Positions 9,880-63,739 are shown, counted from the stretch's first letter. The stretch is 64,000 nt of DNA from Paludibacteraceae bacterium (GCA_024399535.1 JAKSNU010000001.1:5628-69627); one strand, 5' to 3'. A program made the numbers and translations. The notes: generated from the sequence alone by a model not told the origin.

Positions 9880-9893
9880 CAATTTGAAAAATT

Positions 9894-11075: not shown

Positions 11076-11083
11076 TATTCGAT

Positions 11084-12176: not shown

Positions 12177-12218
12177 AAATTTCGCAACAAAAAATGACGG
12201 TTTTCTGTTGCGAAATTT
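12177..12218. promoter_or_regulatory. Perfect 12-bp inverted repeat (AAATTTCGCAAC-18 nt-GTTGCGAAATTT) abutting the dnaA promoter
   Basis: The arms are 12177-12188 and 12207-12218. The right arm ends 6 nt before the -7 box and is followed by TTTTGTTTG. It could be an operator or a terminator. Confidence 0.4.
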
Positions 12219-12224
12219 TGTTTG

Positions 12225-12232
12225 TACCTTTG
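12225..12232 (+). promoter_or_regulatory. -7 box TACCTTTG for dnaA
   Basis: TAnnTTTG followed by CAG, as in other promoters here. It lies inside the ORF-track version of dnaA, so the TTG start at 12208 is unlikely. Confidence 0.5.
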
Positions 12233-12255
12233 CAGTCGCAAAACAAGAGAAAAAA

Positions 12256-48763: not shown

Positions 48764-48805
48764 AAAGACTGTCTGACGTCATTTCGTGTTAGGCAGTCTT
48801 TTTTT
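48764..48805 (+). terminator. iorB intrinsic terminator
   Basis: ~14-bp stem (AAAGACTGTCTGAC / GTTAGGCAGTCTTT with G:U pairs) followed by a T-run. Confidence 0.7.
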
Positions 48806-48870: not shown

Positions 48871-49779
48871 ATGCTGATCGAGGAATACAAGGGATATCTG
48901 ACACTTGAGCAGGGATTGTCCGGCAATTCGAGAGAAGCCTACGAACACGATGTGTCCATGCTGCTTGACTATTTAGATTCCATCGGAATGGATTGCAGGT
49001 CTGTTGACCTGGCTACGCTATCCGATTTCGTGATGGAATTGGGCAAAATGGGACTTTTGGCACGTTCGCAAGCGAGGATTGTATCAGGAGTCAGGTCGTT
49101 CTACCGTTTCTTGCTCTACAGCAATAAGATGGAATACGACCCAGCCGAACGGCTGATGGTGCCTAAGGCTGGACGACACCTGCCCGAAGTGCTCACACTG
49201 GACGAGATTGATTCCATGATTGCCGTATTGGAAGAAAACGCCATAGGAAGCATCGACATGATAGTGAAAAGGAACAGAGCCATCATCGAAGTGATGTATG
49301 GGTCTGGATTGAGGGTGTCAGAACTTGTAAATCTTAAATTCAGTGATATACGCCGTGATGAGGAGTTCATGATAATCCGTGGCAAGGGCGACAAGCAACG
49401 AATGGTACCAATATCAGTAATGGCATTGGAAAAGATTGACGAATATGCAAAATTTCGCGGTGAATTCGGCATAAAACGAGGCGAAGAGGATATTGTCTTC
49501 CTCAATCAGCGAGGCGCAAGGCTGACTCGTACTATGATACTCATCATGGTGAAAGACCTTGCAAAACGTGCAGGCATAAAAAAGACCATTTCACCGCATA
49601 CCTTTCGTCATTCCTTTGCGACAGCCATGCTCGAAGGTGGAGCCAATCTGAGGGTCATACAGATGCTTTTGGGACACGAAAACATCGTAACCACCGAAAT
49701 CTACACCCATATTGACAATCAGCGTCTCAGGGAAGAAATCATCAATTTCCATCCAAGGAACCAGAAAAAAATTCAATAA
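48871..49779 (+). CDS. xerD: Tyrosine site-specific recombinase XerD
   Basis: 302 aa with an N-terminal SAM-like domain, catalytic R...HTFRHSFAT...LLGH...TTEIYTH, and XerD-like length. Confidence 0.8.
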   Translation: MLIEEYKGYLTLEQGLSGNSREAYEHDVSMLLDYLDSIGMDCRSVDLATLSDFVMELGKMGLLARSQARIVSGVRSFYRFLLYSNKMEYDPAERLMVPKAGRHLPEVLTLDEIDSMIAVLEENAIGSIDMIVKRNRAIIEVMYGSGLRVSELVNLKFSDIRRDEEFMIIRGKGDKQRMVPISVMALEKIDEYAKFRGEFGIKRGEEDIVFLNQRGARLTRTMILIMVKDLAKRAGIKKTISPHTFRHSFATAMLEGGANLRVIQMLLGHENIVTTEIYTHIDNQRLREEIINFHPRNQKKIQ

Positions 49780-49813
49780 AAACACCCTCCAAGGAAAAAA
49801 TCCCTCAAAACCC

Positions 49814-49844
49814 TTTGTTATTCGGAAAATAAATCGTACCTTTG
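49814..49844 (+). promoter_or_regulatory. Capsule-locus promoter (-33 TTTG 49814-49817, -7 TACCTTTG 49837-49844)
   Basis: 19-nt spacing, ~130-200 nt upstream of the UpxY start. Confidence 0.55.
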
Positions 49845-49870
49845 CACAAAATTAAGGATAAAGAATTATA

Positions 49871-49917
49871 CGGTATCAATTACCCTCCTCCCATTTATAC
49901 CGATGGGGGGGGTAATT
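49871..49917 (+). promoter_or_regulatory. Leader RNA structure with a G8 tract in the 5' UTR of the capsule operon
   Basis: AATTACCCTCCTCCCAT (49878-49894) pairs with ATGGGGGGGGTAATT (49903-49917). CGGTAT (49871-49876) pairs with ATACCG (49897-49902). The two helices interleave, giving a pseudoknot-like or mutually exclusive arrangement. The G8 run is 49905-49912. Confidence 0.5.
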
Positions 49918-49979
49918 TACTATAATTCAACTACTTAACAATTCAGTCTTTTTGAAATTCGCTGGATAGCAATATTGAA

Positions 49980-50573
49980 ATGACCGATTCACTTAGCAGT
50001 TCTCCATACATAAATTCCGCTGTTTCGGCAGAGGGGTGTCCCCCAGATATGTCACTTTCCCAACCAAAATGGTTCGTCATGCGCGTCACCTACAGCCGTG
50101 AACTGAAGGCGAAGCAGCTACTACAAGATGCAGGAGTGGAGTGTTTCGTCCCAATGATGTGGGTCAGAGACGAAAATGGCGAGCACAGCATACCAGCAAT
50201 ACACAATCTGATTTTCGTGCATACATCCCGTGAGTTCATGGACGACTACAAGCACAAGATGGAGAACGAATGCCCTTTGCGATATACGATGGACAAGAGT
50301 ACCAGACTGCCGATGGTAGTGCGGGAAAAGGAGATGGAGGATTTCATGCGTGTGACCTGCAACAAATCGAGCGACATACTTTATCTTGACAACCCAGATG
50401 TTACCGCAACCAAGGGCACACCTGTCGAGGTGATGTTCGGGCAATACAAAGGCATACAGGGCAAACTGCTCCGTGTGCGCAAGGACCGCAAGGTGGTGCT
50501 GCAACTGGCTGGCATGGTGGCTATCGCACTTAGCGGCATTCCGATGGAATGGTGCCGCTTAATTGACTATTGA
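49980..50573 (+). CDS. UpxY-family (NusG-like) transcription antiterminator
   Basis: KWFVMRVTYSRELKAKQLLQDAGVECFVPM is NGN-like, with a C-terminal KOW-like VMFGQYKGIQGKLLRV. The true start may be the ATG at 50049. Confidence 0.8.
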   Translation: MTDSLSSSPYINSAVSAEGCPPDMSLSQPKWFVMRVTYSRELKAKQLLQDAGVECFVPMMWVRDENGEHSIPAIHNLIFVHTSREFMDDYKHKMENECPLRYTMDKSTRLPMVVREKEMEDFMRVTCNKSSDILYLDNPDVTATKGTPVEVMFGQYKGIQGKLLRVRKDRKVVLQLAGMVAIALSGIPMEWCRLIDY

Positions 50574-50594: not shown

Positions 50595-51203
50595 ATGAAA
50601 GAAGTAAGAAGGAAAACTATATATATTCGTTGTATCAAAAGAATAATTGACGTTATTATAGCCCTTAGTGGGATAATCGTGTTGTTTGTTCCGATGGTGA
50701 TAGTAGCTGTACTTATCACGAAAGACAGTTCTGGTAGCGTCCTTTTCACACAGATCCGTTCCGGAAAAAACCGCAAGCCGTTCAAAATACTGAAGTTCAG
50801 AACGCTACCGCCTGATAGTCCTCATTATATTGCATCTAACAATATGACGGATAAAATAAGACTTACGCCTCTTCAGAAATATCTACGCAAGAGTTCCATT
50901 GATGAATTGCCGCAATTATATAATGTCCTGAAAGGGGATATGAGCATAGTTGGTCCCAGGCCTGTGATTTGTGAAGAGACAGATTTGTTGTGTGAGCGTG
51001 AAAAATATGGAGCTAACGATGTACTTCCCGGACTGACTGGATGGGCACAGATTAATGGACGTGATGAATTGGACATCCACCAGAAAGCGCGGTTAGACGG
51101 TGAATACGTGAGTAAAATAAGTTTTGCGTTTGATTTGAAATGCTTTATGCTTTCAATCAACTACGTACTGACGCACAACGGATTCAAGGACAAATTCGAC
51201 TAA
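50595..51203 (+). CDS. Initiating undecaprenyl-phosphate sugar-phosphate transferase (bacterial sugar transferase family)
   Basis: 202 aa with one TM, KFRTL and DELPQLYNVLKGDMSIVGPRP. Confidence 0.85.
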   Translation: MKEVRRKTIYIRCIKRIIDVIIALSGIIVLFVPMVIVAVLITKDSSGSVLFTQIRSGKNRKPFKILKFRTLPPDSPHYIASNNMTDKIRLTPLQKYLRKSSIDELPQLYNVLKGDMSIVGPRPVICEETDLLCEREKYGANDVLPGLTGWAQINGRDELDIHQKARLDGEYVSKISFAFDLKCFMLSINYVLTHNGFKDKFD

Positions 51204-51227: not shown

Positions 51228-53639
51228 ATGCAGGAAAGTAATTCAAACAATCAATTTTCTTGGAGAGACTTGTTTTTCGAATGTATTGCGCATTGGAAAT
51301 GGTTCTTGATTTCAGTCATACTGTGTTTGGCTGTTTCTGGATATGTAATACTATCTTCCAATGACATTTACGAATCATCTGCGTCCATCTTGATCAAGAC
51401 AGAGGACAAGAATGCCATTTCACGACAGGCACGCGATGCCTTCAACCTTTTGGGGTTGGGAAATGCGGGAAGCAATGTTCATAACGAGTTGTTGACACTT
51501 CAGTCGCCAACCCTTATGGCAGAGGTGATTGAGCAATTGCGTCTGAATGAGACTTTCATGGTCAGGAAAGGGTTGAAGACAGTTGAATTGTACAAGCAGG
51601 AGCCTGTTGTCATAGTCTTTGAGAATCCATCCGAACTGCAAAAAGTCCTGAAAATGGACATTACCGTCAAGAGTCATTCTGAGTTTGAACTGAAGAATTT
51701 CAAAGCCGGGAAAATTAAATCGCGCAAGAAGATCGTTGTAAAAGCAGGCAGTCCGGTCGAAACGCCCGTAGGAAGGTTGATTATCTCTCCTTCACAGAAT
51801 TATTCGGATGAGATGGTGGGCAAGAAGATTCAGTACATGCGCACGGATCCGTTACTGATTGCGGACAGTTATGTAAAAAGACTCAACCTCAACATGCCCG
51901 ACCGTGAGGCTACTGTCATAAATATCAGTTATACTGACCCCTCTGTGGTCAAATCGTTGGATTTGATAACTACCCTTATAGATACATACAGGAAAAACTG
52001 GCTCATCAACCAAAATTCTAAAATACGCAGCATTTCGGAGCTTGTCAATGACAGGATAGAGATAACCGTGCAGGAACTTAACGAATCAGAAGTGGCGATA
52101 TCCTCATATATGTCAAAGACTCTCGTCAGCGACTTCAATCAGGCATCCAGTGCTTATTTTAGCCAAAATCTGGAGTTGGACAAGGAGATTATGACATACC
52201 GCACTCAGGTGAATATAGCGAAGTCAATGCTCAATTCATTGTCTGACTCTGAATATCTTACTCTCCCTGCCAATTCCGGTCTGACAGATAATTCCATAGT
52301 TCCACAGATTCAGGAGTACAACCGCTTGATTCTGGAATACAACAAACTCGTTGCGAACAGCGGTTCGACTAATTCAGTCGTAAACGATATGACAAAATCC
52401 TTGCAGGCTATTCGCAAGGGTGTCGTGCAGTCGTTGAAGAGTCTGATTACAAATACTGAAATCATAATCAGTTCGTTGGAGAAGCAGATGAGTGCCAGCC
52501 AAAAGCAATTGGCAAACACGCCACAGGAGGCTCATCGTCTTGCCAACGTCCAGCGCGAACAGAAGATTAAGGAAGAACTTTATCTCTTCTTGTTGGAAAA
52601 GAAGGAAGAGAACGATTTGTCTCAGTCGTTCGAAACTGATAATTCTCAGATAATCGTTGCGCCTCATTCCACTTTCCTTCCGGTGGCACCGAACAAAGAA
52701 CTAATAATTCTGGCAGCACTGATTGCAGCATTTGTTTTGCCTATTGTCATTATTATGCTGCTTGCACTGTTTGACACCTGTGTCCACACCAAGAGAGACC
52801 TTGAGAAAATGAAGGCATCCTATCTCGGCGAGGTTCCTTTTGCATACAGGGAAAAGAAGAAGGGTTTCCTTTCCTTCCTATCGAAGTTACGTCCATGGAA
52901 AGAAGAGACAGAGTCCTACACCGTATTGGTAAAGAAAAACAGCCGCAACATCATAAATGAGGCGTTCCGCATACTGCGTTCACGACTGGACTTCATGAAC
53001 AAGTCGGGTGAAAGTAAAGTGTTCATGATAACATCCATACAACCTGGGTCAGGCAAGACTTTCACATCCATGAATCTTGCTGCATCATACGCTTTGAAAG
53101 GCAGCAAGGTGCTTGTGATTGATATGGATTTGCGCCGTGCATCCGCATCGAAGTATGTGTCAGAATCAAAATATGGAAGCGGGTTGTCCGATTTTCTCAG
53201 CAGCACAGACGACGATTATAAGAAAATCATCATAAGAGATACTATTATCCAAGGACTGGATATCATACCGGTAGGCACCATTCCTCCGAACCCTGCCGAG
53301 TTGATACTCTCCGACAGACTGAAATCAATGGTTGCAGACTTGCGAAAAGAGTACGACTGCATATTCATTGACTGTCCGCCAATAGATCTCGTTGCCGACA
53401 GTGATGTGATAGCTGGATTCGCCGACATGGCAATCTTTGTCATCCGAGCCGGACTGTTTGAGAAAACCTGGCTTCCTGAAGTTGATGAACTCTATACCAA
53501 GAAGATGTTCAAGAATATGGTAGTCCTGCTCAATGGAGTAACTGATTCTGGACACTATGGCTACGGAAGATATGGTCATTATGGCTATTACAGATACGGG
53601 TATTACAGCTATTACCATCATTACTATTCTAAGGATTGA
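51228..53639 (+). CDS. Polysaccharide co-polymerase / tyrosine autokinase (Wzc-like)
   Basis: 803 aa with a Wzz-like N-terminal domain and two TMs, P-loop SIQPGSGKTF, and a Tyr-rich tail GHYGYGRYGHYGYYRYGYYSYYHHYY. Confidence 0.85.
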   Translation: MQESNSNNQFSWRDLFFECIAHWKWFLISVILCLAVSGYVILSSNDIYESSASILIKTEDKNAISRQARDAFNLLGLGNAGSNVHNELLTLQSPTLMAEVIEQLRLNETFMVRKGLKTVELYKQEPVVIVFENPSELQKVLKMDITVKSHSEFELKNFKAGKIKSRKKIVVKAGSPVETPVGRLIISPSQNYSDEMVGKKIQYMRTDPLLIADSYVKRLNLNMPDREATVINISYTDPSVVKSLDLITTLIDTYRKNWLINQNSKIRSISELVNDRIEITVQELNESEVAISSYMSKTLVSDFNQASSAYFSQNLELDKEIMTYRTQVNIAKSMLNSLSDSEYLTLPANSGLTDNSIVPQIQEYNRLILEYNKLVANSGSTNSVVNDMTKSLQAIRKGVVQSLKSLITNTEIIISSLEKQMSASQKQLANTPQEAHRLANVQREQKIKEELYLFLLEKKEENDLSQSFETDNSQIIVAPHSTFLPVAPNKELIILAALIAAFVLPIVIIMLLALFDTCVHTKRDLEKMKASYLGEVPFAYREKKKGFLSFLSKLRPWKEETESYTVLVKKNSRNIINEAFRILRSRLDFMNKSGESKVFMITSIQPGSGKTFTSMNLAASYALKGSKVLVIDMDLRRASASKYVSESKYGSGLSDFLSSTDDDYKKIIIRDTIIQGLDIIPVGTIPPNPAELILSDRLKSMVADLRKEYDCIFIDCPPIDLVADSDVIAGFADMAIFVIRAGLFEKTWLPEVDELYTKKMFKNMVVLLNGVTDSGHYGYGRYGHYGYYRYGYYSYYHHYYSKD

Positions 53640-53723: not shown

Positions 53724-55088
53724 ATGGAAAAGACATTTGATTTTCATGAGTTGTATTCACATGAGACAGATGTGTACAATTTGAAGGGTTTTAAGCCCCA
53801 AATCGTTGATGCCGAGTATTTGAAGAATCTTGGCGTAAGTGTTGAACCCTCCGAAGCGACCCTGCAAGGGCTTATCCGCGGCTCAAAAATTTTCATGCAA
53901 AGGTTGGAAAACCATACAGTTATTCCAGTTTCAAAACTTTATCTTGAACAGTGTGTCCCAGAGGAAATCCAGACCGAGATACACAACTACACCGGTCGTT
54001 GCCCGACATTGACTTTCGAGGTCAATCCAATCAAGGGCTGCAACGTGGGATGTCAGTACTGCCTTGTCACTGATGGTGTACACGAGCAGAAACTGGTGGC
54101 ATACGAAAACTACCACGAGTATGTGCGTTACCTGCTCAAGGAAATGAATGGGACTCCCACACGCGAAATCACAGAGGACGATATGAAAGAACGTGCACAT
54201 CTGCTCAAAGAGCTGGCGGATGCTATCGAGAGTGCGCCTGAGAAGAAGAAAGAGATTGAAGCCAAGATTGTAGAGCTGAGCCGAGGCAAGAACTGGAACC
54301 ACTACTACTATTTCTCTCCCAAAACCGAGGCATTCCAGGAGCCAACACTTCAGACAGGCATAGCACACCGCATATTGCGTGAGTTCATTGCACATTTCAA
54401 GGAATATCCTGATTCAAACGCACGCCTGTTTATAGCATCCAAGGCGGGCGCAAAGCATTTGCTTGTCAAGGACGAACAGGGAGCAACCATCCTCGACTTG
54501 CTGGAGCAGCTCAAAGACCGCTGCCAGTTCAACACCTCTGTCAGCATCATGCCTACTGAGTTCCGCAATCTGCTTGAACCATACGCTGCCCCTATCGAGG
54601 AGCGTCTGAAAGCAGTCAAGATGTGTCAGGAACGTGGAATTCCAGCTAATTCGGCACTGATTCAACCTATCTTCACACCTTATTTGACAGACGAACACAT
54701 CAAGGAGTTCTTCGACATGTTGCACGATGCCGGCATCATCAACTACAAGCCGGAATTCCTGACAGCCTGTATGGAGAACCTTGCGCAGTTGGGTCAATGG
54801 CTGGGTCATTTCGACAAGAGCATGGAGAAGGCTCTTTACGAGGATTATATCATGCCACAGAATGCCGACCATAAGAAACAGCGTGGACGCACAGCTCCAA
54901 ACAAGGCACTCAGTATTCAGAACATTCAGCGACTGATGAAATACACCGACTCTATCGGCATGAGCATCAGTATTTGCTTCTGGGTACGCAAGATGCTGAA
55001 CATAAGCACGGACATGATTCCTATCATCAACAAGAACGGTTTCCAGTGCTTGGGCTATCAGTCAAAGCTTTTCAAGTGTAAGGAATAA
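53724..55088 (+). CDS. Radical SAM protein, SPL/COG1533-like, with a helical insertion
   Basis: 454 aa. The CxxxCxxC cluster GCNVGCQYC (Cys106/110/113; DNA from 54039) lies in the NP-x-x-GC context typical of the SplB-like clade. A K/E-rich ~60-aa insert follows the cluster. Confidence 0.7.
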   Translation: MEKTFDFHELYSHETDVYNLKGFKPQIVDAEYLKNLGVSVEPSEATLQGLIRGSKIFMQRLENHTVIPVSKLYLEQCVPEEIQTEIHNYTGRCPTLTFEVNPIKGCNVGCQYCLVTDGVHEQKLVAYENYHEYVRYLLKEMNGTPTREITEDDMKERAHLLKELADAIESAPEKKKEIEAKIVELSRGKNWNHYYYFSPKTEAFQEPTLQTGIAHRILREFIAHFKEYPDSNARLFIASKAGAKHLLVKDEQGATILDLLEQLKDRCQFNTSVSIMPTEFRNLLEPYAAPIEERLKAVKMCQERGIPANSALIQPIFTPYLTDEHIKEFFDMLHDAGIINYKPEFLTACMENLAQLGQWLGHFDKSMEKALYEDYIMPQNADHKKQRGRTAPNKALSIQNIQRLMKYTDSIGMSISICFWVRKMLNISTDMIPIINKNGFQCLGYQSKLFKCKE

Positions 55089-55942
55089 TGGAACCTCACA
55101 AACATGCCCTTTGGGTACCGACTCCCAAATTCATTCCTTTCCGGGAAGGAAATATCCTTCCACACGTGAAATGCTCTTTTCACCTGAGTGATCCGGAACT
55201 GAAGATTGCGAGCAGCAATGCCATGTATCCTGTTTCGGCAGGGATATTCCAAAACTTATTCTGCAAAGAAGTGTTTCGGGAGATGCATAGCCTGAACAAG
55301 ATTTTCAATCCGGGAGGGTTTGATGCTTTGAAGAAAGGGAAAATAGACCTGTTCATCACGTATGCCAATGATGAACAGGTTGCAGATATACGACAGACTG
55401 TTCCTTCCTTGAAACAAGTGACACTGCATCTTGAGCCGCTTATATTTATGGTTCACACCTCCAATCCTGTGCAGAACATAACTATGGAGCAGATGCGTGC
55501 CATGTATGAGGGAAAGATTACGAATTGGAAAGAGGTCGGAGGCAAGGATGAACCCGTCTTAACCTTCCAACTGACATCACCAAACAACGTCAGCGGCACG
55601 GCATTCTTAGAGTTTGTCAAAGGAAATACCATGGACGGGAACCACCAATGGAGTGAAACCATGTGGGATGTCGTTGACAGCGTGGCTGACAACATAGGCG
55701 GAATAGGCAATCTTTTCTGGTCATACTATGCCAAGATATATGCCAACAAATACACCCGGATGGTAAGCATAGACGGCAAGTCTTTCAGTAATCCTGCTTA
55801 TCCTTGCCGGTTGCCTATCAGTATGCTGTATGATGGGAACAACAGCAAATCACAATTGCATCAGTTAGTGGAATATCTATCCTCTGAAGAGGGAATCCAA
55901 CTTGTCAGGAAATGCAATGAATGTCAAAGAACAATTGAATAA
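55088..55942 (+). CDS. PstS-like (PBP_like_2) substrate-binding-fold protein with no signal peptide
   Basis: 284 aa. MRAMYEGKITNWKEVGGKDEPVLTF...SGTAFLEFV matches the phosphate-binding-protein family signature region. The N-terminus MEPHKHALWVPTPKF has no hydrophobic leader. Confidence 0.6.
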   Translation: MEPHKHALWVPTPKFIPFREGNILPHVKCSFHLSDPELKIASSNAMYPVSAGIFQNLFCKEVFREMHSLNKIFNPGGFDALKKGKIDLFITYANDEQVADIRQTVPSLKQVTLHLEPLIFMVHTSNPVQNITMEQMRAMYEGKITNWKEVGGKDEPVLTFQLTSPNNVSGTAFLEFVKGNTMDGNHQWSETMWDVVDSVADNIGGIGNLFWSYYAKIYANKYTRMVSIDGKSFSNPAYPCRLPISMLYDGNNSKSQLHQLVEYLSSEEGIQLVRKCNECQRTIE

Positions 55943-57153
55943 TGGAAACTTGCTGGCAAGTCTGTCATACGTTATATGACCATCGGTTAGATTATTTCTA
56001 CCGTTGGTATCATCTCAAGCCGCTGCTTGTCACAGGCGAGCGCAGGGAAGAATTGCGCCGTATGCAACAGCTTCTGTACAAGTGTATAGTCTATATGGCT
56101 GACACGTGGGAGGAGTGGGTTCCGGCCTACATGCCTTTGCCTGAAAAGGTGATTGAGATTCTGCGTTATCAAAGCCGACTGCCATTCCGGGCAGGAGCCT
56201 ATCGTCCTGACTATTTGGTGGATGAGAACGGCAATCTGCTGTTGGTGGAAATAACCTCCCGATTTTTCGGGCACGGGCTATGGCAGAGTTATCCTTCCGA
56301 GGCATGGGCGGAGTCTTTCATGCAGGAGCATACCGATTGCGAATGGGAAAACAGTTATGAGGAACGGTTTCAATATCTGAGGAATCTTGTTCCAGATGGG
56401 CAGAAAGTGGTGGCATTGCGCAGCACAGACCGTACTTCCGAACCCTCTTTTTACCTGCCTTTTTATGAGCATTTCGGACATCAGACTTACGATTTGAAAG
56501 CCGAAGAGGTAGAATCGCAGATAGAGCTTTGGAGCAAAGATGCGTTTGTATTCAGCGGACTAAATCAGCACGATTTGCTATCCTTCCGAATGGAGACCTT
56601 GCAAGCTATGGCGGATGCCCGCATGATGAACGATTTCCGTACTGTCTTTATTATTCATGATAAGCGTTTTATGCGGATGATATTTGAGGATGCGTTCACC
56701 CAGCGGTGTCTGACAGAGGAAGAAACCGTTTTCCTGCGCCAACATACCATCCCGACCTTTTGCTATGAGGATGGCTTTATGGACCGATGGGAATATGCCT
56801 TGTCGCATAAGGACGACTACATTCTCAAACCCTTTGATTTGGGAAAAAGCGAAGGCATCTATGCCGGCGTGATGACTAACGATGAAACATGGGGCTCGCT
56901 GTTCGAGGAAAATCAGTTGCAGCATTACATCCTTCAGCCCTTCATCCGTCAGCGCACCTATCCCACCGTTTGGGAAGGGACAGCGTATGATGACTATATT
57001 TGCGGAATGATGCTTTGTATAGATGACCGGTATTTTGATAGCGGTTTTGTCCGTACGGCAAGTGTGCCTGTGTCCAACAAAGTTGATTTGCGTGTCAAAC
57101 CGGTTATTCACAGTGATTCGGAAGAATTGAAAGCATATTGCCATATTTTATAG
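55942..57153 (+). CDS. ATP-grasp-type ligase resembling eukaryotic-type glutathione synthetase
   Basis: 403 aa. YRPDYLVDENGNLLLVEITSRFFGHGL and YILKPFDLGKSEGIYAG recall the RSDYM...VEFNTISSSFGG and LKPQREGGGNN blocks of eu-GS. The assignment is from memory. Confidence 0.5.
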   Translation: METCWQVCHTLYDHRLDYFYRWYHLKPLLVTGERREELRRMQQLLYKCIVYMADTWEEWVPAYMPLPEKVIEILRYQSRLPFRAGAYRPDYLVDENGNLLLVEITSRFFGHGLWQSYPSEAWAESFMQEHTDCEWENSYEERFQYLRNLVPDGQKVVALRSTDRTSEPSFYLPFYEHFGHQTYDLKAEEVESQIELWSKDAFVFSGLNQHDLLSFRMETLQAMADARMMNDFRTVFIIHDKRFMRMIFEDAFTQRCLTEEETVFLRQHTIPTFCYEDGFMDRWEYALSHKDDYILKPFDLGKSEGIYAGVMTNDETWGSLFEENQLQHYILQPFIRQRTYPTVWEGTAYDDYICGMMLCIDDRYFDSGFVRTASVPVSNKVDLRVKPVIHSDSEELKAYCHIL

Positions 57154-57164
57154 ATTCATCAGTT

Positions 57165-57899
57165 ATGACTGTAGGAATGCAACAACCATACCTATTCCCG
57201 TATTTAGGCTATTGGCAGATGGTGAATGCCGTGGATACGTTCATTATAGCAGATGTATCCCACATGATACAATACGGATGGGTTCATCAAAATCGTTTAC
57301 AGCAGCGTTATATAGGACCATTCTTTTTTCGTTTGGATTTGGTGCAAAAACGCAGTACCTATATGCATCCTATATGCGAAGTGGAAATTGACAGAATCAA
57401 AAAAGACAGATGGAATATCCGTATGCAAAGAACATTGGCACTAAATTACAGCAATGCACCCCATTATGACGAGACGATGGCTTTTATAATGCCACTCTTG
57501 GAGAACGATGAAACAAACTTGGCCGACTACCTCGTAAATCAGATTAGGGCAATAGCCGCCTATTTGGACATAACCACGACCATTGTGCGCAGTAAGGATA
57601 TGATGCAAGAGAAGGAATATAATTTACCAATCTTGGAAAAGATTATAATCTGGCGCGACCGTGTCGGATTCGACTCGTGGCTTAGTTTGAGCAACGGTGC
57701 GCACTACTATACCAAGGATCAGATGGCAGAGATGGGCATTGACATTCGTTTCCATCATATTGACCCCACATTGACTTATCCGCAGGTCGGGGTAAAACGC
57801 GGAGAACCGTTTGTTCCTGATTTGTCCATCATCGATGTACTGATGAATTGCGGAAAGGAAGGGACTAAAGAATTACTGAGTAAATATACCGTAATATGA
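57165..57899 (+). CDS. WbqC-family protein
   Basis: MQQPYLFPYLGYWQMVNAVDTFII matches the WbqC N-terminal signature. The ORF track starts at TTG 57138; the ATG at 57165 or 57177 is more plausible. Confidence 0.75.
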   Translation: MTVGMQQPYLFPYLGYWQMVNAVDTFIIADVSHMIQYGWVHQNRLQQRYIGPFFFRLDLVQKRSTYMHPICEVEIDRIKKDRWNIRMQRTLALNYSNAPHYDETMAFIMPLLENDETNLADYLVNQIRAIAAYLDITTTIVRSKDMMQEKEYNLPILEKIIIWRDRVGFDSWLSLSNGAHYYTKDQMAEMGIDIRFHHIDPTLTYPQVGVKRGEPFVPDLSIIDVLMNCGKEGTKELLSKYTVI

Positions 57900-59014
57900 T
57901 TAACATTATGCAGCCCTCGCTTGGCGAGGAAGAACTAAGCCGCTTGCGCGAAGTGTTTGCCTCCAATTGGATTGGCAAAGGCATGTTGCTGACAAAGTTT
58001 GAGGAAGAGTTTGCCGCTCATGTGGGTTCTACCCGTGAGCATATACTCACTACCAACTGCTGCACCGAAGGACTCTTCGCTTCGATGTACCTGTTCGACA
58101 TCAAGCAGGGCGACGAAGTCATCTGCGGTGACTTGTCGTTTGTAGGTGTTGGCAATGCCATACTGAACTGTGGTGCCAAGATGGTCATCTGCGATGTTGA
58201 TCCTCGCACACTCAACCCTACTGCAGAAACGATAGAACGGGTCATCACACCTCGCACCAAAGCCATCCTGCTGTCTCACTATGGCGGCATAGCCTGCGAG
58301 ATGGACGAGATAATGGCATTAGCTAAAGCACATAACCTGTATGTCATAGAGGATGCCGCACCTGGCGTTTGCTCAAAGTACAAAGGCAAGGCGCTTGGCA
58401 CCATCGGCGATATGGGAATGTGGAGTTTCGATGCCATGAAGATACTTGTCACCGGCGACGGAGCAGCTATATATCTCAAAGACCCGATGCTTCGCAACAA
58501 ATGCGACAAATGGTTCTACTTCGGAATGAACGTCAAGAGCGGCAGCGAGAACAGCGTGGCGCAGAAGTGGTGGGAGTTCGATGTGGAATGCTATGGCCAC
58601 CGTGCTATCATGAACAACATCGGTGCGGCACTCGGCTTGGAGCAGCTTAAGAAACTGCCAATGTTCATGGAACGTCGTGCCTACGTTCACGAGACGTACA
58701 ATCAGGAACTGAAGAATATTGACTGGCTGGTATTACCTCCTGCTCTGCCAGACTATGTAGAAACTTCCTACTATTTCTACCACGTCCAGTTGCCAGACCG
58801 TGACCGCGATGCCTTTGCCCGTTTCCTGCGTGAGAACAACATCTACACCACCTACCGCTATTTCCCGTTCCATCGTGTACCGGGCTTCCATTGTCTGGAG
58901 GCAGAGTGTCCGGGAGCGGATTATGCTACAGACCATACGCTCTGTTTGCCGATACACCAGAGTCTATCGGAGAGCGATGTAGCATATATTATCGAAACAA
59001 TCAAGAAATTCTAA
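57896..59014 (+). CDS. DegT/DnrJ/EryC1/StrS-family sugar aminotransferase
   Basis: 372 aa with IMQPSLGEEELSRLREVFASNWIG and SFDAMKILVTGDG (PLP Lys region). ATGA overlap with wbqC. Confidence 0.85.
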   Translation: MINIMQPSLGEEELSRLREVFASNWIGKGMLLTKFEEEFAAHVGSTREHILTTNCCTEGLFASMYLFDIKQGDEVICGDLSFVGVGNAILNCGAKMVICDVDPRTLNPTAETIERVITPRTKAILLSHYGGIACEMDEIMALAKAHNLYVIEDAAPGVCSKYKGKALGTIGDMGMWSFDAMKILVTGDGAAIYLKDPMLRNKCDKWFYFGMNVKSGSENSVAQKWWEFDVECYGHRAIMNNIGAALGLEQLKKLPMFMERRAYVHETYNQELKNIDWLVLPPALPDYVETSYYFYHVQLPDRDRDAFARFLRENNIYTTYRYFPFHRVPGFHCLEAECPGADYATDHTLCLPIHQSLSESDVAYIIETIKKF

Positions 59015-59019
59015 CCATT

Positions 59020-59553
59020 ATGAGTTTGTTACGCCATTTAGGAGGCATAGAACTGGAAGAAGACTATTGCCGGTTCAAGGAGATAACGCATAGCCGTTTT
59101 TTACGACTGTTTGTGTACAATCCGGCTTTCCGCTATCAGTTTTACTATCGGTTGCGGATACATTCGAAGGTATGGCACATCTTGCTCAAACCGCTTGTGC
59201 CGTTCAATTTCCTAAATTTGTATATGTGCTGTAAGGACATCGGTGGAGGATTATTCATACAGCACGGATATTCCGTTGGTTTGGGTTGTGACAAGATTGG
59301 TAAGAATTGCATTATCAATCAGAATGTAACCATAGGATATAATGACTCGTATCACTGCCCGGTCATTGGCGATAATGTACATATTTGTACAGGTGCTGTC
59401 ATCATCGGAGATGTCAAAATCGGGAATGATGTGATTGTTGGAGCCAATGCTGTGGTGGTAAAAGATGTGCCCGACCACTCTGTCGTTGCCGGTGTGCCTG
59501 CAAAAATAATCAAAACCCGATCGGATATGAACTCGGAATGGGTAAAGGTATGA
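59020..59553 (+). CDS. Serine-acetyltransferase-like hexapeptide O-acetyltransferase
   Basis: The ATG at 59020 (MSLLRHLGG) is preferred. Left-handed beta-helix repeats IGDNVHICTGAVIIGDVKIGNDVIVGANAVVVKDVP. Confidence 0.8.
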   Translation: MSLLRHLGGIELEEDYCRFKEITHSRFLRLFVYNPAFRYQFYYRLRIHSKVWHILLKPLVPFNFLNLYMCCKDIGGGLFIQHGYSVGLGCDKIGKNCIINQNVTIGYNDSYHCPVIGDNVHICTGAVIIGDVKIGNDVIVGANAVVVKDVPDHSVVAGVPAKIIKTRSDMNSEWVKV

Positions 59554-61013
59554 ATGAATCGTTGAAATCAAAGACCTTGCACGGAGTCGGGTGGAGCGCC
59601 TTGCAGAGCGTGCTGAACTACGGAATCAGTTTCGTGGTCGGTATCGTTTTGGCGCGTCTGTTGGACCCGTCCGAGTACGGTTTGATTGGCATGGCTTTCA
59701 TTTTCATTACTCTCAGTACGGTCATTGCAGACAGCGGCCTGACCAACTCCCTGATTCGCAAGACCGAAGCCACCGATGAGGATTACCAAACGGTTTTCTC
59801 CGTCAATCTGGCAATAAGCGTTCTCCTATATGTCGTGCTGTTCTTCGGTGCGGGACTGATAGCGGATTTCTTCCGTGAGCCGCGGTTGGTGATGGTTGTG
59901 AGGGTGTTGGGTGTACTGGTTATTATCAACGCCTTTTCGCAAATTCAGCGCACGATACTGACCAAGCGCATTGACTTCAAGTCGCAGACCAAAGTCTCCA
60001 TCGTAGCAGCGGTGGTAAGCGGTGTTACGGGTATTGTGATGGCATATAAGGGTTTTGGCGTTTGGGCACTGATTACCCAGCAGTTGGTTCAGACGGTGGT
60101 TCGTACAGCCTCCTATTGGATTTATACACGGTGGATGCCGCACTTTACATTCTCTCAAAAGTGTTTTCGCGAGCATTTTGATTTCGGTTGGAAGATGCTG
60201 ATTAGTAATGTTATTTCCGCTTCTTTCAAAGAAGCCGCTAATGCGGTGATAGGCAGATATTATTCCGCACAATCGTTGGGGTACTATGCCAAGTCGCGCC
60301 GAATTACCGAGATTTTCTCCATCAACCTGACCGAATCAGTCAACCGCGTCACTTATCCTGTGATGAGTGAGATGAAGTCCGAACCGTCGCGTCTGCTCTC
60401 CGCTTATCGCAGGATGATACGCACCACGATGTTGCCTACTTTCTTTTGTATGCTTATGCTTGCCGCTGTGGCGCAGCCGCTCATACTCACCCTTATCGGC
60501 GAGAAGTGGTTGCCGTCGGTAGGCATGGTGCAGGTGCTGTGCTTCTATCTTATGCTCTATCCGCTGCATGCCATCAACCTCAACATGCTGCAAGTGGCAG
60601 GGCGAAGCGATTTATATCTGAGATTGGAGATAATAAAGGATGTGTTGCTTGTCATCCCTTTGGTTCTGGGTGTGACGAAAGGTATCTACTGGATGTTATG
60701 GGGGTATGTATTGTTGGGTTTTGTTGCCTATTGGCTTAATGCCCGTTACAGTGGGCGTTTTGTCGGTTATCCTTTTCGGCAGCAGGTCAAGGATATTCTA
60801 CCGGGATTCGGCATAGCAGCTGTTTCGTCAGCAGCAGTTTGGACGATTACGCTTTTGCCGCTCCATTTCCATCTACAACTTGCAATGCAGGCAGTCATCG
60901 GTTCACTGCTGGCATTTGGACTGTGCGAGTGGTTCAGCTTGCCTGAATATAAAGAATTGAAAAACATTGCAACAAATGCATTACGAAGTCGCCATACAAG
61001 TTATAACTTATAA
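59538..61013 (+). CDS. wzx: Polysaccharide flippase (MOP/Wzx family)
   Basis: 491 aa with ~12-14 TMs and an N-terminus LKSKTLHGVGWSALQSVLNYGISF typical of O-unit translocases. Confidence 0.75.
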   Translation: MGKGMNESLKSKTLHGVGWSALQSVLNYGISFVVGIVLARLLDPSEYGLIGMAFIFITLSTVIADSGLTNSLIRKTEATDEDYQTVFSVNLAISVLLYVVLFFGAGLIADFFREPRLVMVVRVLGVLVIINAFSQIQRTILTKRIDFKSQTKVSIVAAVVSGVTGIVMAYKGFGVWALITQQLVQTVVRTASYWIYTRWMPHFTFSQKCFREHFDFGWKMLISNVISASFKEAANAVIGRYYSAQSLGYYAKSRRITEIFSINLTESVNRVTYPVMSEMKSEPSRLLSAYRRMIRTTMLPTFFCMLMLAAVAQPLILTLIGEKWLPSVGMVQVLCFYLMLYPLHAINLNMLQVAGRSDLYLRLEIIKDVLLVIPLVLGVTKGIYWMLWGYVLLGFVAYWLNARYSGRFVGYPFRQQVKDILPGFGIAAVSSAAVWTITLLPLHFHLQLAMQAVIGSLLAFGLCEWFSLPEYKELKNIATNALRSRHTSYNL

Positions 61014-61872
61014 TCAGAAAGACTATATTGCCCAATGCCTGGACAGTATAGTGATGCAGCGCACCACGTTCCCCTTTGTGGCGGTTGTCCATGATGATGC
61101 CTCTACGGACGGCACAGCGGATATTGTGCGTCAATATGCCGAGCACTATCCCGACATGATTCATCCTGTTTTCCAGACTCAGAATCAGTATTCAATAGGC
61201 AATTCTCCTGCAAGGATAGCGGCAGAGGAATTGGATAGGCTCAATCCTAAATACAAGTGTTTTTTGGATGGAGATGATTATTGGACGGATGCTGAGTCTT
61301 TGCAGATGCGTTATGATTATTTGGAAGAACATAGGGAATGCGCTGTCGTATATTCGAAGGTTGTGGAATTGTTACCTTCCGGTGAGATTGCAGAATTGGA
61401 TGCAAACTACCAATGGAAAGTACCTACACTGGAAACGTTGCTTATCAGGAATACAATTCCTTTGGCAACAGCAATGTGCAGGATAGATGTGCATCGGGAA
61501 TTTTTCAAGGAAATAAAGCCTTTCGATAAACTATGGCCAATCAACGATTGGGCAATGTGGCTCTATATGGCATCGAAACAGTATGAGATGGCGTTTATAG
61601 ACCAGGTAACTTGCGTATATAGAGTGACCCCGGTATCCATGACCAGAAAAAAAACGCTGTGGGAGAGAATAAAATATATTAACGGACTCAAACATCTGAC
61701 ATTGTATTTCTCCCGTTATAGTACGCAACCTCATATTCGCCGGCAAATAAAACGGCGTGTGAATCGTGGAATTTATAATGAGATAATGGATGAAATCAAG
61801 AAATATCCAATGGGAGCCTTGCTTTTCAAGGTATTTATGACCTTACGGTATGGAAAAAACAAAACTGAATAG
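60976..61872 (+). CDS. Family 2 glycosyltransferase
   Basis: VAIQVITYNQKDYIAQCLDSIVMQ...VVHDDASTDGT and a DGDDYW (DxD) motif. The ATG at 60976 is preferred over the TTG at 60967. Confidence 0.8.
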   Translation: MHYEVAIQVITYNQKDYIAQCLDSIVMQRTTFPFVAVVHDDASTDGTADIVRQYAEHYPDMIHPVFQTQNQYSIGNSPARIAAEELDRLNPKYKCFLDGDDYWTDAESLQMRYDYLEEHRECAVVYSKVVELLPSGEIAELDANYQWKVPTLETLLIRNTIPLATAMCRIDVHREFFKEIKPFDKLWPINDWAMWLYMASKQYEMAFIDQVTCVYRVTPVSMTRKKTLWERIKYINGLKHLTLYFSRYSTQPHIRRQIKRRVNRGIYNEIMDEIKKYPMGALLFKVFMTLRYGKNKTE

Positions 61873-63166
61873 TCTGTTTACTCCCCTTGTCGCTGCCTGC
61901 TATTACGGCGTGATAATCGGTATGTTGCTGCTTTGGTCAAACGGCGATATACCTGGTGTGTTGCGTTATCCGTTTGCTGTGTTGCCTTTCCTCCCCGTCC
62001 TTTTCGTTGATAAACGCTGGTTTTTCCCGTCTCTGTTTGCCGCCTTGACAGTGTTCAACAATATGCCAAAGGATCAATTTCAGTACAATCAGCTGTTCTA
62101 TATCGGGATGATTGGCATCGTACTCATCTATTACGGCATCCGTGACAGGCAAATCATCTCTCCCTTTGAGTTTGCGCCGTTTGTCTTGACTTTGGCATAT
62201 ATGATGGTGGTGGATTTCGCTACGGACAATGCTTTGCAGCAATGCCATCGCAACCTAAGTGTTGCAGTCTCTGCCATGTTGGCTTTGGGTACCAGTTCGC
62301 AACCTTCGCAAAGGATTGAGGGGCAAGGCAGAGATTGTGCATACGCCTTTGTTATTGCCTCTATAGTCATCAGCATCGTATATTGGCTTAATTTTGACAT
62401 CTATGCGGAAGACTACGGCTGGAAGACGGGGCTGATACGCTCTTTTTACACCGATCCAAACTATCAGGGATGTACCATCGGTATGGGCGTTGTGCTCGCC
62501 GTTTGGCTGCTTTTGAACGACAAAGCCGCCGTTTGGTGGCAACGGATACTCTGTGCCGTCGGCATCGCGGTACCGTTGGTCACGGTCTTCACACTCGCTT
62601 CGCGTGGGGCTTTGGTTGCCGTTGCGGGAGCTGTGATACTACTGGTACTGGTATCCGATACGCGTAAAGGATATAAAGCATTGGTCGTGCTGTTGGGAAT
62701 AGTGTTTGTCGCCTATGCGTATAGCAATCACTATATGGATTTGGTAATTGCTCGTTTGCATGAAAAGGACATGCTTACAGGAGCCTCCCGCCTACTCATT
62801 TGGAAAAGTAAGATGATCTCATTCTTTCGCGACACCAATCCGCTCCATTGGTTGTTCGGTATGGGCTATTGGAATGCCTTGGAATGTGGCGACTTTATCA
62901 CTGCGCACATGAATGATGGCTTAGCCTATTCCGCTTTTCACAACCAGTTCCTTTCAGTGTTGGTAACATACGGTTTGGTGGGATTGGCTGGATTTGTAGT
63001 GCTTTTATGGTTGCCTATCCACAAAGCGGTAAAGGGTAATAAGTTGCTTACGGCAGTGTTGGTATCGTATCTCATATTGGTTTGTATGACGCTGGAGCCG
63101 CTGACAATAGGTCACATTGCTTTCTATTTTTATTATATGTTTGTTTACATTCAGGCTACACGATAA
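61850..63166 (+). CDS. O-antigen polymerase/ligase-family membrane protein (Wzy-like)
   Basis: 438 aa with ~10-12 TMs and a large loop with SRGALVAV, in a locus context with Wzx and Wzc. Confidence 0.6.
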   Translation: MEKTKLNSLFTPLVAACYYGVIIGMLLLWSNGDIPGVLRYPFAVLPFLPVLFVDKRWFFPSLFAALTVFNNMPKDQFQYNQLFYIGMIGIVLIYYGIRDRQIISPFEFAPFVLTLAYMMVVDFATDNALQQCHRNLSVAVSAMLALGTSSQPSQRIEGQGRDCAYAFVIASIVISIVYWLNFDIYAEDYGWKTGLIRSFYTDPNYQGCTIGMGVVLAVWLLLNDKAAVWWQRILCAVGIAVPLVTVFTLASRGALVAVAGAVILLVLVSDTRKGYKALVVLLGIVFVAYAYSNHYMDLVIARLHEKDMLTGASRLLIWKSKMISFFRDTNPLHWLFGMGYWNALECGDFITAHMNDGLAYSAFHNQFLSVLVTYGLVGLAGFVVLLWLPIHKAVKGNKLLTAVLVSYLILVCMTLEPLTIGHIAFYFYYMFVYIQATR

Positions 63167-63178
63167 ATAAAAGATATT

Positions 63179-63739
63179 ATGAGTAAACTAATCAATGTAT
63201 TGAAACATTTGTTTATGTTGCGAAACGCAGCTCTTTCAATTCAAGAAGAGTCAATGAAAATGAAAGCAAAGATAGAGAATGGGGGAGGACATGTCGGGAA
63301 TCATTTTGACTTAATAAATTCTTCCATAGATCTTATTTTTCCATATCTGATAAGCATTGGTGATAATGTAACATTATCAGGAGTCAAGATTCTTACGCAC
63401 GATGCTTCTTTGAAAAAATCAATAGGATATACTAAAGTGGGAAAGGTGACAATAGGGGATAATGTGTTTGTCGGCTGGGGAAGTACTATACTAATGAATA
63501 CAACGATAGGCAATAATGTGGTTATCGGTGCCGGTTCTATAGTAACGGGGCATATACCGGATAATAGTGTCGCAGTCGGCAATCCTTGTCGAGTGATATG
63601 TTCCTATGATGAATACAAACAGAAAATGCTCACAAAGATGCAACAAGTGCCGGTGTTTGACAAATCCCCGAATGAGATAAACAATTCACCGGAAGACGTT
63701 GAAAGACTTAAACAAGCCGGCTACGGTTTTGTATTATAA
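63179..63739 (+). CDS. Hexapeptide-repeat acetyltransferase (LacA/MAT-like)
   Basis: IGDNVFVGWGSTILMNTTIGNNVVIGAGSIVTGHIPDNSVAVGNPCRV. Confidence 0.75.
   Translation: MSKLINVLKHLFMLRNAALSIQEESMKMKAKIENGGGHVGNHFDLINSSIDLIFPYLISIGDNVTLSGVKILTHDASLKKSIGYTKVGKVTIGDNVFVGWGSTILMNTTIGNNVVIGAGSIVTGHIPDNSVAVGNPCRVICSYDEYKQKMLTKMQQVPVFDKSPNEINNSPEDVERLKQAGYGFVL

Follow-up and report, generated by a model that had tools for sequence, protein, structure and literature searches.

Capsule decorations set the recognition of gut and rumen Bacteroidales by phages, by the immune system and by competitors, and their chemistry is mostly unknown. The current work concerns a candidate decoration system specified by six genes at positions 53724 to 59553 of a 64,000-nucleotide stretch of DNA from a Paludibacteraceae bacterium (GCA_024399535.1 JAKSNU010000001.1:5628-69627), this whole stretch, read on one strand from 5′ to 3′, being referred to here as the window. 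The genes encode, in this order, a radical S-adenosylmethionine (SAM) enzyme, a PstS-like protein, an ATP-grasp ligase, a WbqC-family protein, a DegT-type aminotransferase and a hexapeptide-repeat acetyltransferase, the first three of which had been singled out in an initial annotation, made from the sequence without database searches, as an unusual tailoring cassette.

The combination of a radical SAM enzyme with an ATP-grasp ligase is known from PylB and PylC: PylB, an enzyme of the BioB/HydE type, makes 3-methyl-D-ornithine from a proteinogenic amino acid, and PylC, an ATP-grasp enzyme of the Ddl type, joins the carboxylate of this compound to an amine, the end product being a free amino acid for translation. 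The ligase of the window has a different reference point in Cp1B, by which the fungal E-64 pathway couples trans-epoxysuccinate, after phosphorylating it, to an L-amino acid; this ATP-grasp enzyme needs R139, D141, E163 and N165 for activity and has homoglutathione synthetase and YgiC/YjfC as neighbours in structure, and Cp1B-like proteins are said to occur ‘in a few bacteria’ (PMC12568646). As for the radical SAM enzyme, the isomerase gp53 of phage M6 shows that enzymes resembling spore photoproduct lyase (SPL) can remodel amino-acid conjugates (PMC8989533). On the side of the glycan, amide-linked amino acids are present on Escherichia coli O antigens, e.g. N-acetylglycine in O121 (PMC7685785), and one E. 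coli O-antigen gene cluster is reported to contain WbqC. In Bacteroides fragilis, WcfR and WcfS make and transfer a 4-amino sugar (AATGal), the dehydratase being encoded outside the operon (PMC13063421).

The protein superfamilies to which the parts of the window’s cassette belong are already known, as is ATP-grasp amidation of glycans as a kind of decoration. What appears to be new is that the ligase has an obligatory radical SAM partner, that a cytoplasmic PstS-fold subunit is dedicated to the module, that WbqC has been recruited and that the arrangement extends across phyla. A literature search directed at WbqC, PF28486, Rv2578c, and SPL in combination with ATP-grasp and polysaccharide returned no published functional description of the module or of its radical SAM family.

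The radical SAM–ligase pair across loci

A scan of one genome per species yielded 32 ligase loci, all of rumen or herbivore-gut provenance (Prevotellaceae, Bacteroidaceae, Paludibacteraceae, Fibrobacter and one Ruminococcus), and the inclusion of metagenome loci brought the set to 45 distinct ligase loci spanning Bacteroidota, Fibrobacter, Bacillota and a probable archaeon. In all 45, the radical SAM gene is located immediately upstream of the ligase gene, the frequency of bacterial AnkG_N ligases without a radical SAM partner being sampled here via the loci that were fetched. The co-conservation on which the initial annotation had staked its proposal is thus observed, but the conserved unit is not the one it had drawn. 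Where a novel trio had been set apart from a familiar WbqC/aminotransferase/acetyltransferase module, the invariant unit proves to be the radical SAM enzyme plus the ligase; the PstS-like gene is optional, being present in 9 of the 45 loci, and WbqC goes with the pair in the rumen clade even when no DegT gene is nearby. WbqC adjoins the pair in every rumen-clade locus that offers at least 600 bp of downstream sequence, three apparent exceptions coming to a stop at a contig edge.

Compared with the window, the loci of the genome scan are 73-80% identical in the radical SAM enzyme, 51-62% in the ligase and 32-38% in WbqC. Across loci, the pairwise divergences of the radical SAM enzyme and the ligase correlate (Spearman 0.83, Mantel p=5e-4), and so do those of either enzyme compared with WbqC (Spearman 0.63-0.68, Mantel p=5e-4), although some co-divergence is expected anyway for physically linked genes. 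The radical SAM enzymes of carriers belonging to Bacteroidota, Fibrobacter and Ruminococcus are 70-99% identical to one another, which suggests lateral transfer of the module within the rumen community.

The complete triad of radical SAM enzyme, ligase and WbqC is situated beside or within capsule or extracellular polysaccharide (EPS) genes in the window and in 15 of 22 complete-triad genome loci. A DegT gene 61-65% identical to that of the window is found directly 3′ of WbqC in 12 of the 45 distinct loci, with no N-acetyltransferase between the two in those of the 12 that were inspected, and more distant DegT genes flank several other module loci. The gene 5′ of the radical SAM gene varies from locus to locus (Bac_transf, DegT, cobalamin genes or a NifX-like gene). 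Neighbours of triads that stand alone, away from glycan genes, comprise cobalamin genes and an ABC/Mla system (L016), a chorismate-binding enzyme (L023), and NifX-like, epimerase and GNAT genes (L025). A link to polyamines, considered on account of arginase-family, agmatine-deiminase-like and ornithine/diaminopimelate decarboxylase genes in L014, L025 and L051, was discarded, such genes being too few and too inconsistent.

Additional ATP-grasp genes were observed near the triad, namely ATPgrasp_ST in L037/L038, L039/L040 and L041, and ATPgrasp_TupA in L037/L038 and L041, which suggests that capsules of related rumen loci may carry several amide decorations each. L037/L038 and L041 also contain a CapA-like PGA_cap gene. 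Among cultured isolates, Prevotella sp. P6B1 and Prevotella sp. khp7 have the triad (L019, L036).

Deeper relatives of the pair were also recovered. A gut Firmicute carries adjacent genes for a radical SAM enzyme (P0412, a widespread protein entered in ~1200 index blocks of the collection) and a ligase that are 66% and 40% identical, respectively, to those of the window, and their neighbours specify a HAD/Rce1-like protein, a family 2 glycosyltransferase (GT2), another ATP-grasp enzyme and DUF2142, with no WbqC. On a probably archaeal contig, a radical SAM enzyme (41% identical) and an AnkG_N ligase (23% identical) are again encoded side by side, next to RNA polymerase subunit L, RadA-like and AMMECR1 genes and likewise with no WbqC. 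Two further radical SAM relatives (7001-8209 of L049 and 7001-8218 of L136), 60% identical to the enzyme of the window, with the six conserved cysteines described below and without its insertion, are part of non-ribosomal peptide synthetase (NRPS) clusters that have no such ligase. One of these clusters reads C domain / A-PCP-TE / radical SAM / CoA-transferase III / phosphopantetheinyl transferase / GNAT, and the other large NRPS / ANL enzyme / radical SAM / ABC exporter. In these three kinds of context the radical SAM enzyme is encoded beside a carboxylate-activating enzyme, which would fit an enzyme that provides or modifies a building block, be it an acid or an amino acid.

A sister capsule locus (L042-L044) provides a comparison from the side of the sugar. 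Its DegT (87% identical), WbqC (67%), flippase (65%) and Wzc (57%) correspond to those of the window, its WbqC being the closest homologue outside the window’s own locus, and its order is Wzc / LAL-Ddl-type ATP-grasp / WbqC / hexapeptide transferase / DegT / flippase (L042 genes ~7742-11433). A single ATP-grasp gene of the LAL/Ddl type thus occupies the place taken in the window by the radical SAM, PstS-like and Cp1B-type ligase genes, so that the ligase slot varies and the amino-sugar part is constant.

Family assignment of the encoded proteins

The first protein matches Pfam Radical_SAM (PF04055) with 38.4 bits (gathering threshold 29.5), which places it in the radical SAM superfamily, and the columns of C106, C110 and C113 in its CxxxCxxC motif (residues 106-113) are invariant in the family alignments. 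The SPL/COG1533-type NPxxGC context of this motif, pointed out in the initial annotation, is indeed present. The named NCBIfam matches of the enzyme and ten of its relatives are confined to PA0069, Rv2578c and mobile-pair B and are weak throughout; for the window’s protein they amount to 42.7 bits for PA0069 (cut-off 360) and 35.1 bits for Rv2578c (cut-off 430), and the match to the PA0069/Rv2578c families covers residues 257-341 only. Judged by these scores, the enzyme is a distant relative of the SPL-like PA0069/Rv2578c (COG1533) clade and not a member of those families. Searches of the PDB with the single sequence and with a profile retrieved neither SPL, even at E<=10 for SPL chains, nor any other relative, and a tblastn search against phages returned weak matches to radical SAM proteins of Acidianus virus only, with no similarity to M6-type phage enzymes. 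The family is very small: when all 1.84 billion cluster representatives were searched with HMMER, 128 proteins, many of which are fragments, came up at E<=1e-3.

Six cysteines are invariant across this family over a range of 30% to 100% identity, namely those of the CxxxCxxC motif together with C93, C418 and C442, and this invariance suggests that the latter three hold a second metal or Fe-S site. The K/E-rich insertion, for which a length of ~60 aa had been given, measures 48 aa; it is partly invariant and confined to the clade of ~450-aa enzymes linked to WbqC, being missing from the ~400-aa relatives P0412, P0402, P0422 and P0246. Its restriction to the WbqC-linked clade hints at a physical interaction between this part of the radical SAM enzyme and WbqC.

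The ligase matched no family of the local Pfam copy at E<=0.1, and hence no glutathione synthetase domain. All of its homologues that were examined carry the precomputed assignment PF28486 ‘AnkG_N’, and a profile of 33 homologues matches the PDB chain 9cjn_A, ‘Ligase Cp1B’, with E=3.5e-13. Within this match the RPD motif of the ligase (R88 and D90, both invariant) aligns with residues 154-156 of the Cp1B chain. Considering that the deposited chain has 517 residues and that the domains of Cp1B as published end at residue 502, we infer a 15-residue tag, by which residues 154-156 would become R139-P-D141; provided that the deposited chain bears this tag, R88 and D90 would correspond to the catalytic R139 and D141. 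E103 and T105 of the ligase (VEIT motif) were paired with E163 and N165 of Cp1B by inspection only, this stretch being outside any alignment. An AlphaFold2 (AF2) model, built from the 33-sequence alignment, was used as weak fold support only, given its mean predicted local distance difference test (pLDDT) score of 55; its top Foldseek matches are human glutathione synthetase (2hgs; E=4.5e-5, template modelling (TM) score 0.35), followed by soybean homoglutathione synthetase (3kak) and E. coli YjfC (7uk6). The likeness to eukaryotic-type glutathione synthetase proposed in the initial annotation is thus right at the level of the fold, and the family proper would be that of Cp1B/AnkG ATP-grasp enzymes. 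A tblastn search with the ligase against plasmids gave no match.

The second protein of the cassette matches Pfam PBP_like_2 (44.6 bits) and TIGR02136 (65.2 bits, below the cut-off of 206.6), and PstS proteins of the PDB align with it only from about residue 68 onward. As had been noted earlier, it contains the motifs ITNWKEVGG and SGT and appears to be cytoplasmic: no signal peptide or lipobox was detected, the highest 12-residue Kyte-Doolittle score in the first 70 residues being 1.05, and the open reading frame (ORF) is not extendable upstream. The accompanying idea of a phosphate binder is unproven, for the anion-site motifs of PstS are not kept across the clade and phosphate binding is consequently not implied: the PstS motifs ‘ASR’ and ‘R..GSGT’ read TYAND and LTSPNNVSGT in the protein of the window, and the homologues of Fibrobacter and Bacteroidaceae have GNDGN and LERGNGSQT there. 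No permease or ABC-ATPase gene was found beside the PstS-like gene when the window’s genes from 42 kb on were scanned. Full-length relatives of this protein are 35-40% identical to it; a metagenome scan returned seven of them, 37-40% identical, and each of the six that have enough flanking DNA is encoded inside a radical SAM/ligase/WbqC block. Four gene orders were encountered: radical SAM–PstS-like–ligase–WbqC, radical SAM–ligase–PstS-like–WbqC, radical SAM–ligase–WbqC–PstS-like, and WbqC–radical SAM–ligase–PstS-like. Among ~70 generic PstS loci, none contained the radical SAM/ligase/WbqC module. Taken together, the family searches place none of the first three genes in a characterized nucleotide-sugar route, as had been anticipated.

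WbqC is a clear member of its Pfam family (PF08889; 167.2 bits against a threshold of 21.3, profile positions 1-217 of 218), and its AF2 model has a pLDDT of 95. No significant fold match to this model was obtained among 350,000 PDB chains (best E=0.024, TM 0.3), the weak top matches, an LmbE-type deacetylase and glutamate 5-kinase, not being taken as evidence of fold relatives, and sequence searches of the PDB with WbqC (single sequence and profile) produced nothing usable. Among the viral proteins of BFVD, five without a name are matched by the model (A0A6J4EHY4 etc.; TM 0.55-0.77, E 1e-14 to 5e-6), so some viruses encode WbqC-fold proteins. Distant WbqC genes accompany DegT together with RmlA/cupin isomerases, a sugar N-formyltransferase, GNATs or FkbH/ACP, so that WbqC is a general companion of amino-sugar pathways. 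In the map of the Streptomyces tRNA-ProX operon, WbqC is positioned between a family 4 glycosyltransferase (GT4) and an LmbE deacetylase, the operon also having a dedicated prolyl-tRNA synthetase isoform, an unusual tRNA-Pro and murG (PMC10404621). That WbqC might be an aminoacyl-tRNA-dependent transferase, an idea prompted by such operons, is speculation and was not used here.

The fifth protein belongs to Pfam DegT_DnrJ_EryC1 (302.9 bits, profile positions 2-359 of 360), and its best NCBIfam matches, dTDP-4-amino-4,6-dideoxygalactose transaminase (236 bits) and PseC (222 bits), are both below their cut-offs; it is presumed to be the source of the capsule’s amino sugar. The acetyltransferase had been assigned to the same familiar amino-sugar module. 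Its scores, in addition to 40.8 bits for Hexapep, are 91 bits for EpsC, 76 for CysE and 58 for WcaB, as against 57 bits for NeuD/PglB/VioB, by which it resembles O-acetyltransferases more than sugar N-acetyltransferases and need not cap a sugar amine.

Gene boundaries and the capsule operon

ORF translation confirmed six tightly packed genes, all on the + strand. In a base-by-base check, three of the overlaps given in the initial annotation were found to be exact: TAATG at 55086-55090 combines the stop of the radical SAM gene with the start of the PstS-like gene, TAATG at 55940-55944 the stop of the latter with the start of the ligase gene, and ATGA at 57896-57899 the start of DegT with the stop of WbqC. 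The fourth, at 57138-57153, depends on a TTG start for WbqC. As residue 16 is the first of this longer TTG-start ORF to match the Pfam profile, and as WbqC is called as a 244-aa protein on contig L003 (95% identical), the start is likely the ATG at 57165, 11 nt past the ligase stop, which removes the overlap. For the acetyltransferase, called at 177 aa on L003, the start is most likely the ATG at 59020 and not that at 58891, which leaves 5 nt between it and the end of DegT. Two metagenome contigs contain the locus in nearly identical form (99% identity for the radical SAM enzyme, 99% for the PstS-like protein and 95% for the ligase), which counts against an assembly artefact.

Judged from these boundaries and from the flanking genes (Table 1), the cassette is translationally coupled inside a capsule operon of the UpxY/Wzc/Wzx/Wzy kind. 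In line with the earlier remark that no convincing precursor peptide was seen, no ORF fitting a cluster for peptides made on ribosomes and modified after translation (RiPPs) was found: the gap between the Wzc and radical SAM genes is only 84 nt, and the later genes abut or overlap.

Table 1. Coordinates of the features of the cassette and its surroundings in the window
Feature	Position	Strand	Basis or remark
UpxY/NusG-like antiterminator	49980-50573	+	Capsule operon head; Pfam NusG
Small Bac_transf phosphoglycosyltransferase	50595-51203	+	Pfam Bac_transf
Wzc-like chain-length/BY-kinase (bacterial tyrosine kinase) protein	51228-53639	+	Wzz/GNVR/AAA_31 annotated on 91%-identical L003 protein
Radical SAM enzyme, 454 aa	53724-55088	+	Pfam Radical_SAM
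CxxxCxxC codons (C106, C110, C113), context NPIKGCNVGCQYC	54039-54062	+	Translation
K/E-rich insertion, 48 aa, residues 143-190 of the radical SAM enzyme	54150-54293	+	Alignment
Cytoplasmic PstS-fold (PBP_like_2) protein, 284 aa	55088-55942	+	Pfam PBP_like_2
Cp1B/AnkG-family ATP-grasp amide ligase (predicted), 403 aa	55942-57153	+	Profile match to PDB 9cjn_A
WbqC-family protein, 244 aa	57165-57899	+	Pfam WbqC
DegT/WecE/PseC-type sugar aminotransferase, 372 aa	57896-59014	+	Pfam DegT_DnrJ_EryC1
Hexapeptide-repeat acetyltransferase, CysE/EpsC/WcaB-like, 177 aa	59020-59553	+	Pfam Hexapep
Wzx-type flippase, GT2, Wzy polymerase, second hexapeptide acetyltransferase	59538-63739	+	ORFs; Pfam on syntenic L003

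Some further features of the window were observed in passing. At its end the Wzc-like protein has a long tail rich in Tyr (…GHYGYGRYGHYGYYRYGYYSYYHHYYSKD), as is typical of bacterial tyrosine autokinases. A tyrosine recombinase gene (48871-49980) is found directly 5′ of the UpxY/NusG-like head of the operon; no inverted repeats bracketing the 200-bp recombinase/UpxY intergenic region were found, and there was no sign of an invertible promoter. A hairpin at 48764-48801 resembles a terminator after the preceding oxidoreductase gene, and an Rfam scan of the whole window returned no match. The window covers the chromosomal origin region, with dnaA at 12208-13659 and a cumulative GC-skew minimum at ~2-4 kb; nearly all genes from 9.9 kb on are on the + strand, and the AT skew is unusually high (0.2-0.34) over ~10-33 kb.

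Possible pathway and comparison with described systems

Starting from the observed gene set, its protein families and their co-conservation, we infer substrates, an order of steps and roles for WbqC and the PstS-like protein along the following lines. The reading that we prefer, albeit tentatively, is that of a capsule cassette in which a small acid or amino acid, formed or remodelled by the radical SAM enzyme, is then joined by the ligase through an amide bond to an amino sugar of the capsule. The radical SAM enzyme would act through its 5′-deoxyadenosyl radical on a small carboxylic or amino acid drawn from primary metabolism, probably assisted by the second metal or Fe-S site at C93, C418 and C442. 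The ligase would phosphorylate the carboxylate with ATP to an acyl phosphate and subsequently form an amide with an amine, here most plausibly the 4-amino group of the sugar made by DegT, after which the small Bac_transf enzyme would load that sugar onto the lipid carrier. WbqC and the cytoplasmic PstS-fold protein may serve as module-specific helpers, e.g. in substrate presentation or transfer, and the hexapeptide acetyltransferase would add its acetyl group elsewhere, either as an O-acetyl group or on the appended group. The DegT product is favoured as the amine because DegT is translationally coupled to the module, because the sister locus keeps DegT and WbqC while its ligase slot varies, because the acetyltransferase of the locus looks like an O-acetyltransferase, and because Bacteroidales capsule operons that have DegT and a small initiating transferase, the dehydratase being encoded elsewhere, build 4-amino sugars (PMC13063421). 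Radical chemistry on the sugar is disfavoured by the relatives in NRPS clusters, which point to a small acid or amino acid.

Several points weigh against this proposal. The ligase residue T105, invariant among the 33 homologues, would replace the Asn of Cp1B (N165), and the AF2 model of the ligase is poor. The stand-alone triads (L016, L023 and L025) have no polysaccharide or DegT genes nearby, so that the amine used by the ligase need not be a DegT product, and the deeper radical SAM–ligase pairs of the gut Firmicute and the archaeal-like contig are without WbqC. Finally, WbqC is found elsewhere with DegT and a different acylating machinery (formyltransferase, GNAT or FkbH/ACP), and its role may for this reason lie in the sugar pathway, not with the ligase.

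A broader version of the proposal, possible but held with less confidence, is that the radical SAM enzyme and its Cp1B-like partner constitute an unrecognized route, so far encountered in organisms of anoxic habitats, to a new non-proteinogenic acid or amino acid, shared by capsules and NRPS; installation in rumen capsules would be helped by WbqC and the PstS-fold subunit, and the same building block would be fed to NRPS elsewhere. As almost all carriers stem from gut or rumen samples, it is plausible that the radical SAM enzyme replaces, without oxygen, the oxygenase of an E-64-like logic.

Among the alternatives, the order of the two steps could be reversed, the ligase first attaching an ordinary acid or amino acid and the radical SAM enzyme then rearranging the conjugate or modifying it in another way, e.g. 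by isomerization, epimerization or cross-linking. The tight coupling of both genes fits either order, and gp53 of phage M6, the only non-repair SPL-like enzyme found in the literature, acts on glycine-thymidine (PMC8989533). Nonetheless, we regard this as rather unlikely in view of the absence of BLAST-level similarity between the radical SAM enzyme and M6-type phage enzymes, its only phage matches being the weak ones to Acidianus virus, and also, as a mild argument, because enzymes in NRPS clusters without the ligase are easier to understand if the radical SAM enzyme acts on a free building block. The stand-alone triads, the stand-alone archaeal-like pair and the natural-product roles of Cp1B and AnkG, together with the NRPS-cluster relatives, would be accommodated if the radical SAM enzyme and the ligase, with or without WbqC, made a free small molecule such as a pseudopeptide or modified amino acid and were merely carried in capsule loci. 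This appears quite improbable, considering that the triad is so often beside or within capsule/EPS genes, in many cases coupled to them and with DegT directly after it, that WbqC is otherwise a protein of polysaccharide loci, and that the conserved set is without an exporter.

It was also considered that the ligase might amidate the carboxylate of a sugar (a uronic acid of the capsule or of a nucleotide diphosphate sugar) with an amine provided by the radical SAM enzyme, WbqC or the PstS-like protein. In Campylobacter jejuni, the ATP-grasp enzyme Cj1438C amidates the C6 carboxylate of capsular glucuronic acid in a pathway that has a HAD phosphatase (PMC11800379); the radical SAM–ligase pair of the gut Firmicute adjoins a gene for a HAD-domain protein, and a phosphorylated amine is a conceivable ligand of the PstS-fold protein. 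The parts of the locus examined showed, however, no UDP-glucose dehydrogenase or uronic-acid gene, Cj1438C is TupA-like and hence of another ATP-grasp family, for which L037/L038 and L041 contain separate genes, and the NRPS contexts of the radical SAM enzyme favour an acid or amino-acid substrate, all of which makes the uronic-acid reading decidedly improbable. The reading that follows from database labels alone, by which a DNA-repair photolyase (SplB-like) and a PstS for phosphate uptake would be chance neighbours, is effectively refuted by context. It is true that several database sources name relatives of the radical SAM enzyme ‘DNA repair photolyase’ and that PstS proteins are the best named relatives of the PstS-like protein, but no SPL structure was matched, the radical SAM enzyme has a predicted amide ligase as its partner in each of the 45 loci, and the PstS-like protein has no signal peptide, a score far below the PstS cut-off, no adjacent transporter genes and full-length relatives that turned up in the module only.

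If the preferred reading of a capsule cassette holds, a substituent derived from radical SAM chemistry would be added to the known decorations of glycans, and a first functional handle would be gained on a narrow SPL-like radical SAM family, on bacterial Cp1B-type ligases, which are of interest for amide-bond biocatalysis, and on WbqC, a widespread family. As radical SAM enzymes of 60% identity occur in NRPS clusters, the identification of one product would annotate glycan and natural-product pathways alike. The broader route, if it exists, would provide a parallel to the fungal logic of oxygenase and Cp1B in E-64 formation without a need for oxygen, and the two cultured Prevotella strains with the triad make the role of the module directly testable.

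With respect to known systems, the ligase is a sequence relative of Cp1B and AnkG, of the E-64 and NK13650 pathways, its invariant RPD motif aligning with the chain of Cp1B, and has the same structural neighbours (glutathione and homoglutathione synthetases, YjfC); Cp1B couples a non-amino carboxylic acid, activated as acyl phosphate, to an amine. It differs in being ~100 residues shorter (403 vs ~500 aa), in coming from anaerobic bacteria and probably archaea, in having a radical SAM enzyme as its partner where Cp1B has a Fe(II)/2-oxoglutarate oxygenase, in being encoded in a capsule operon and not in a natural-product cluster, and in T105 as against N165, a difference noted by inspection only. 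The pair follows the same logic of a radical SAM enzyme followed by an ATP-grasp enzyme as PylB and PylC, to which it is not homologous, none of the NCBIfam Pyl models matching the proteins of the window, and the product of that pathway is not a glycan substituent.

The radical SAM enzyme has in common with the SPL-like clade the NPxxGCxxxCxYC context of its motif, PA0069, Rv2578c and mobile-pair B being its sole named matches, and is set apart by scores ~10-fold below the family cut-offs, an extra N-terminal region of 95 aa, three extra invariant cysteines and the 48-aa insertion. The PstS-like protein aligns over its C-terminal three quarters with PstS (PDB 4q8r, 1twy; E=1e-24 with the clade profile) and keeps G-x-I-[ST]-N-W-x-E-[LV]-G-G, whereas its first ~67 residues are unaligned and it differs from PstS in having no signal peptide, no pstCAB partners and a location confined to the module.

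As regards glycans, WbqC is encoded beside a sugar aminotransferase in the window, and O121-type glycans bear an amide-linked acyl or aminoacyl group, although no radical SAM enzyme or Cp1B-type ligase is reported there. Cj1438C of C. jejuni HS:2 is likewise an ATP-grasp enzyme by which a capsule sugar receives an amide decoration, but it is of the TupA-like family, activates the carboxylate of the sugar and works without a radical SAM enzyme, together with a HAD phosphatase and pyridoxal phosphate-dependent enzymes (PMC11800379). The capsule operon for polysaccharide A (PSA) of B. fragilis, like that of the window, has DegT and a small Bac_transf gene and no 4,6-dehydratase gene in the locus; in PSA the 4-amino group stays free, whereas that of the window’s capsule is proposed to be acylated.

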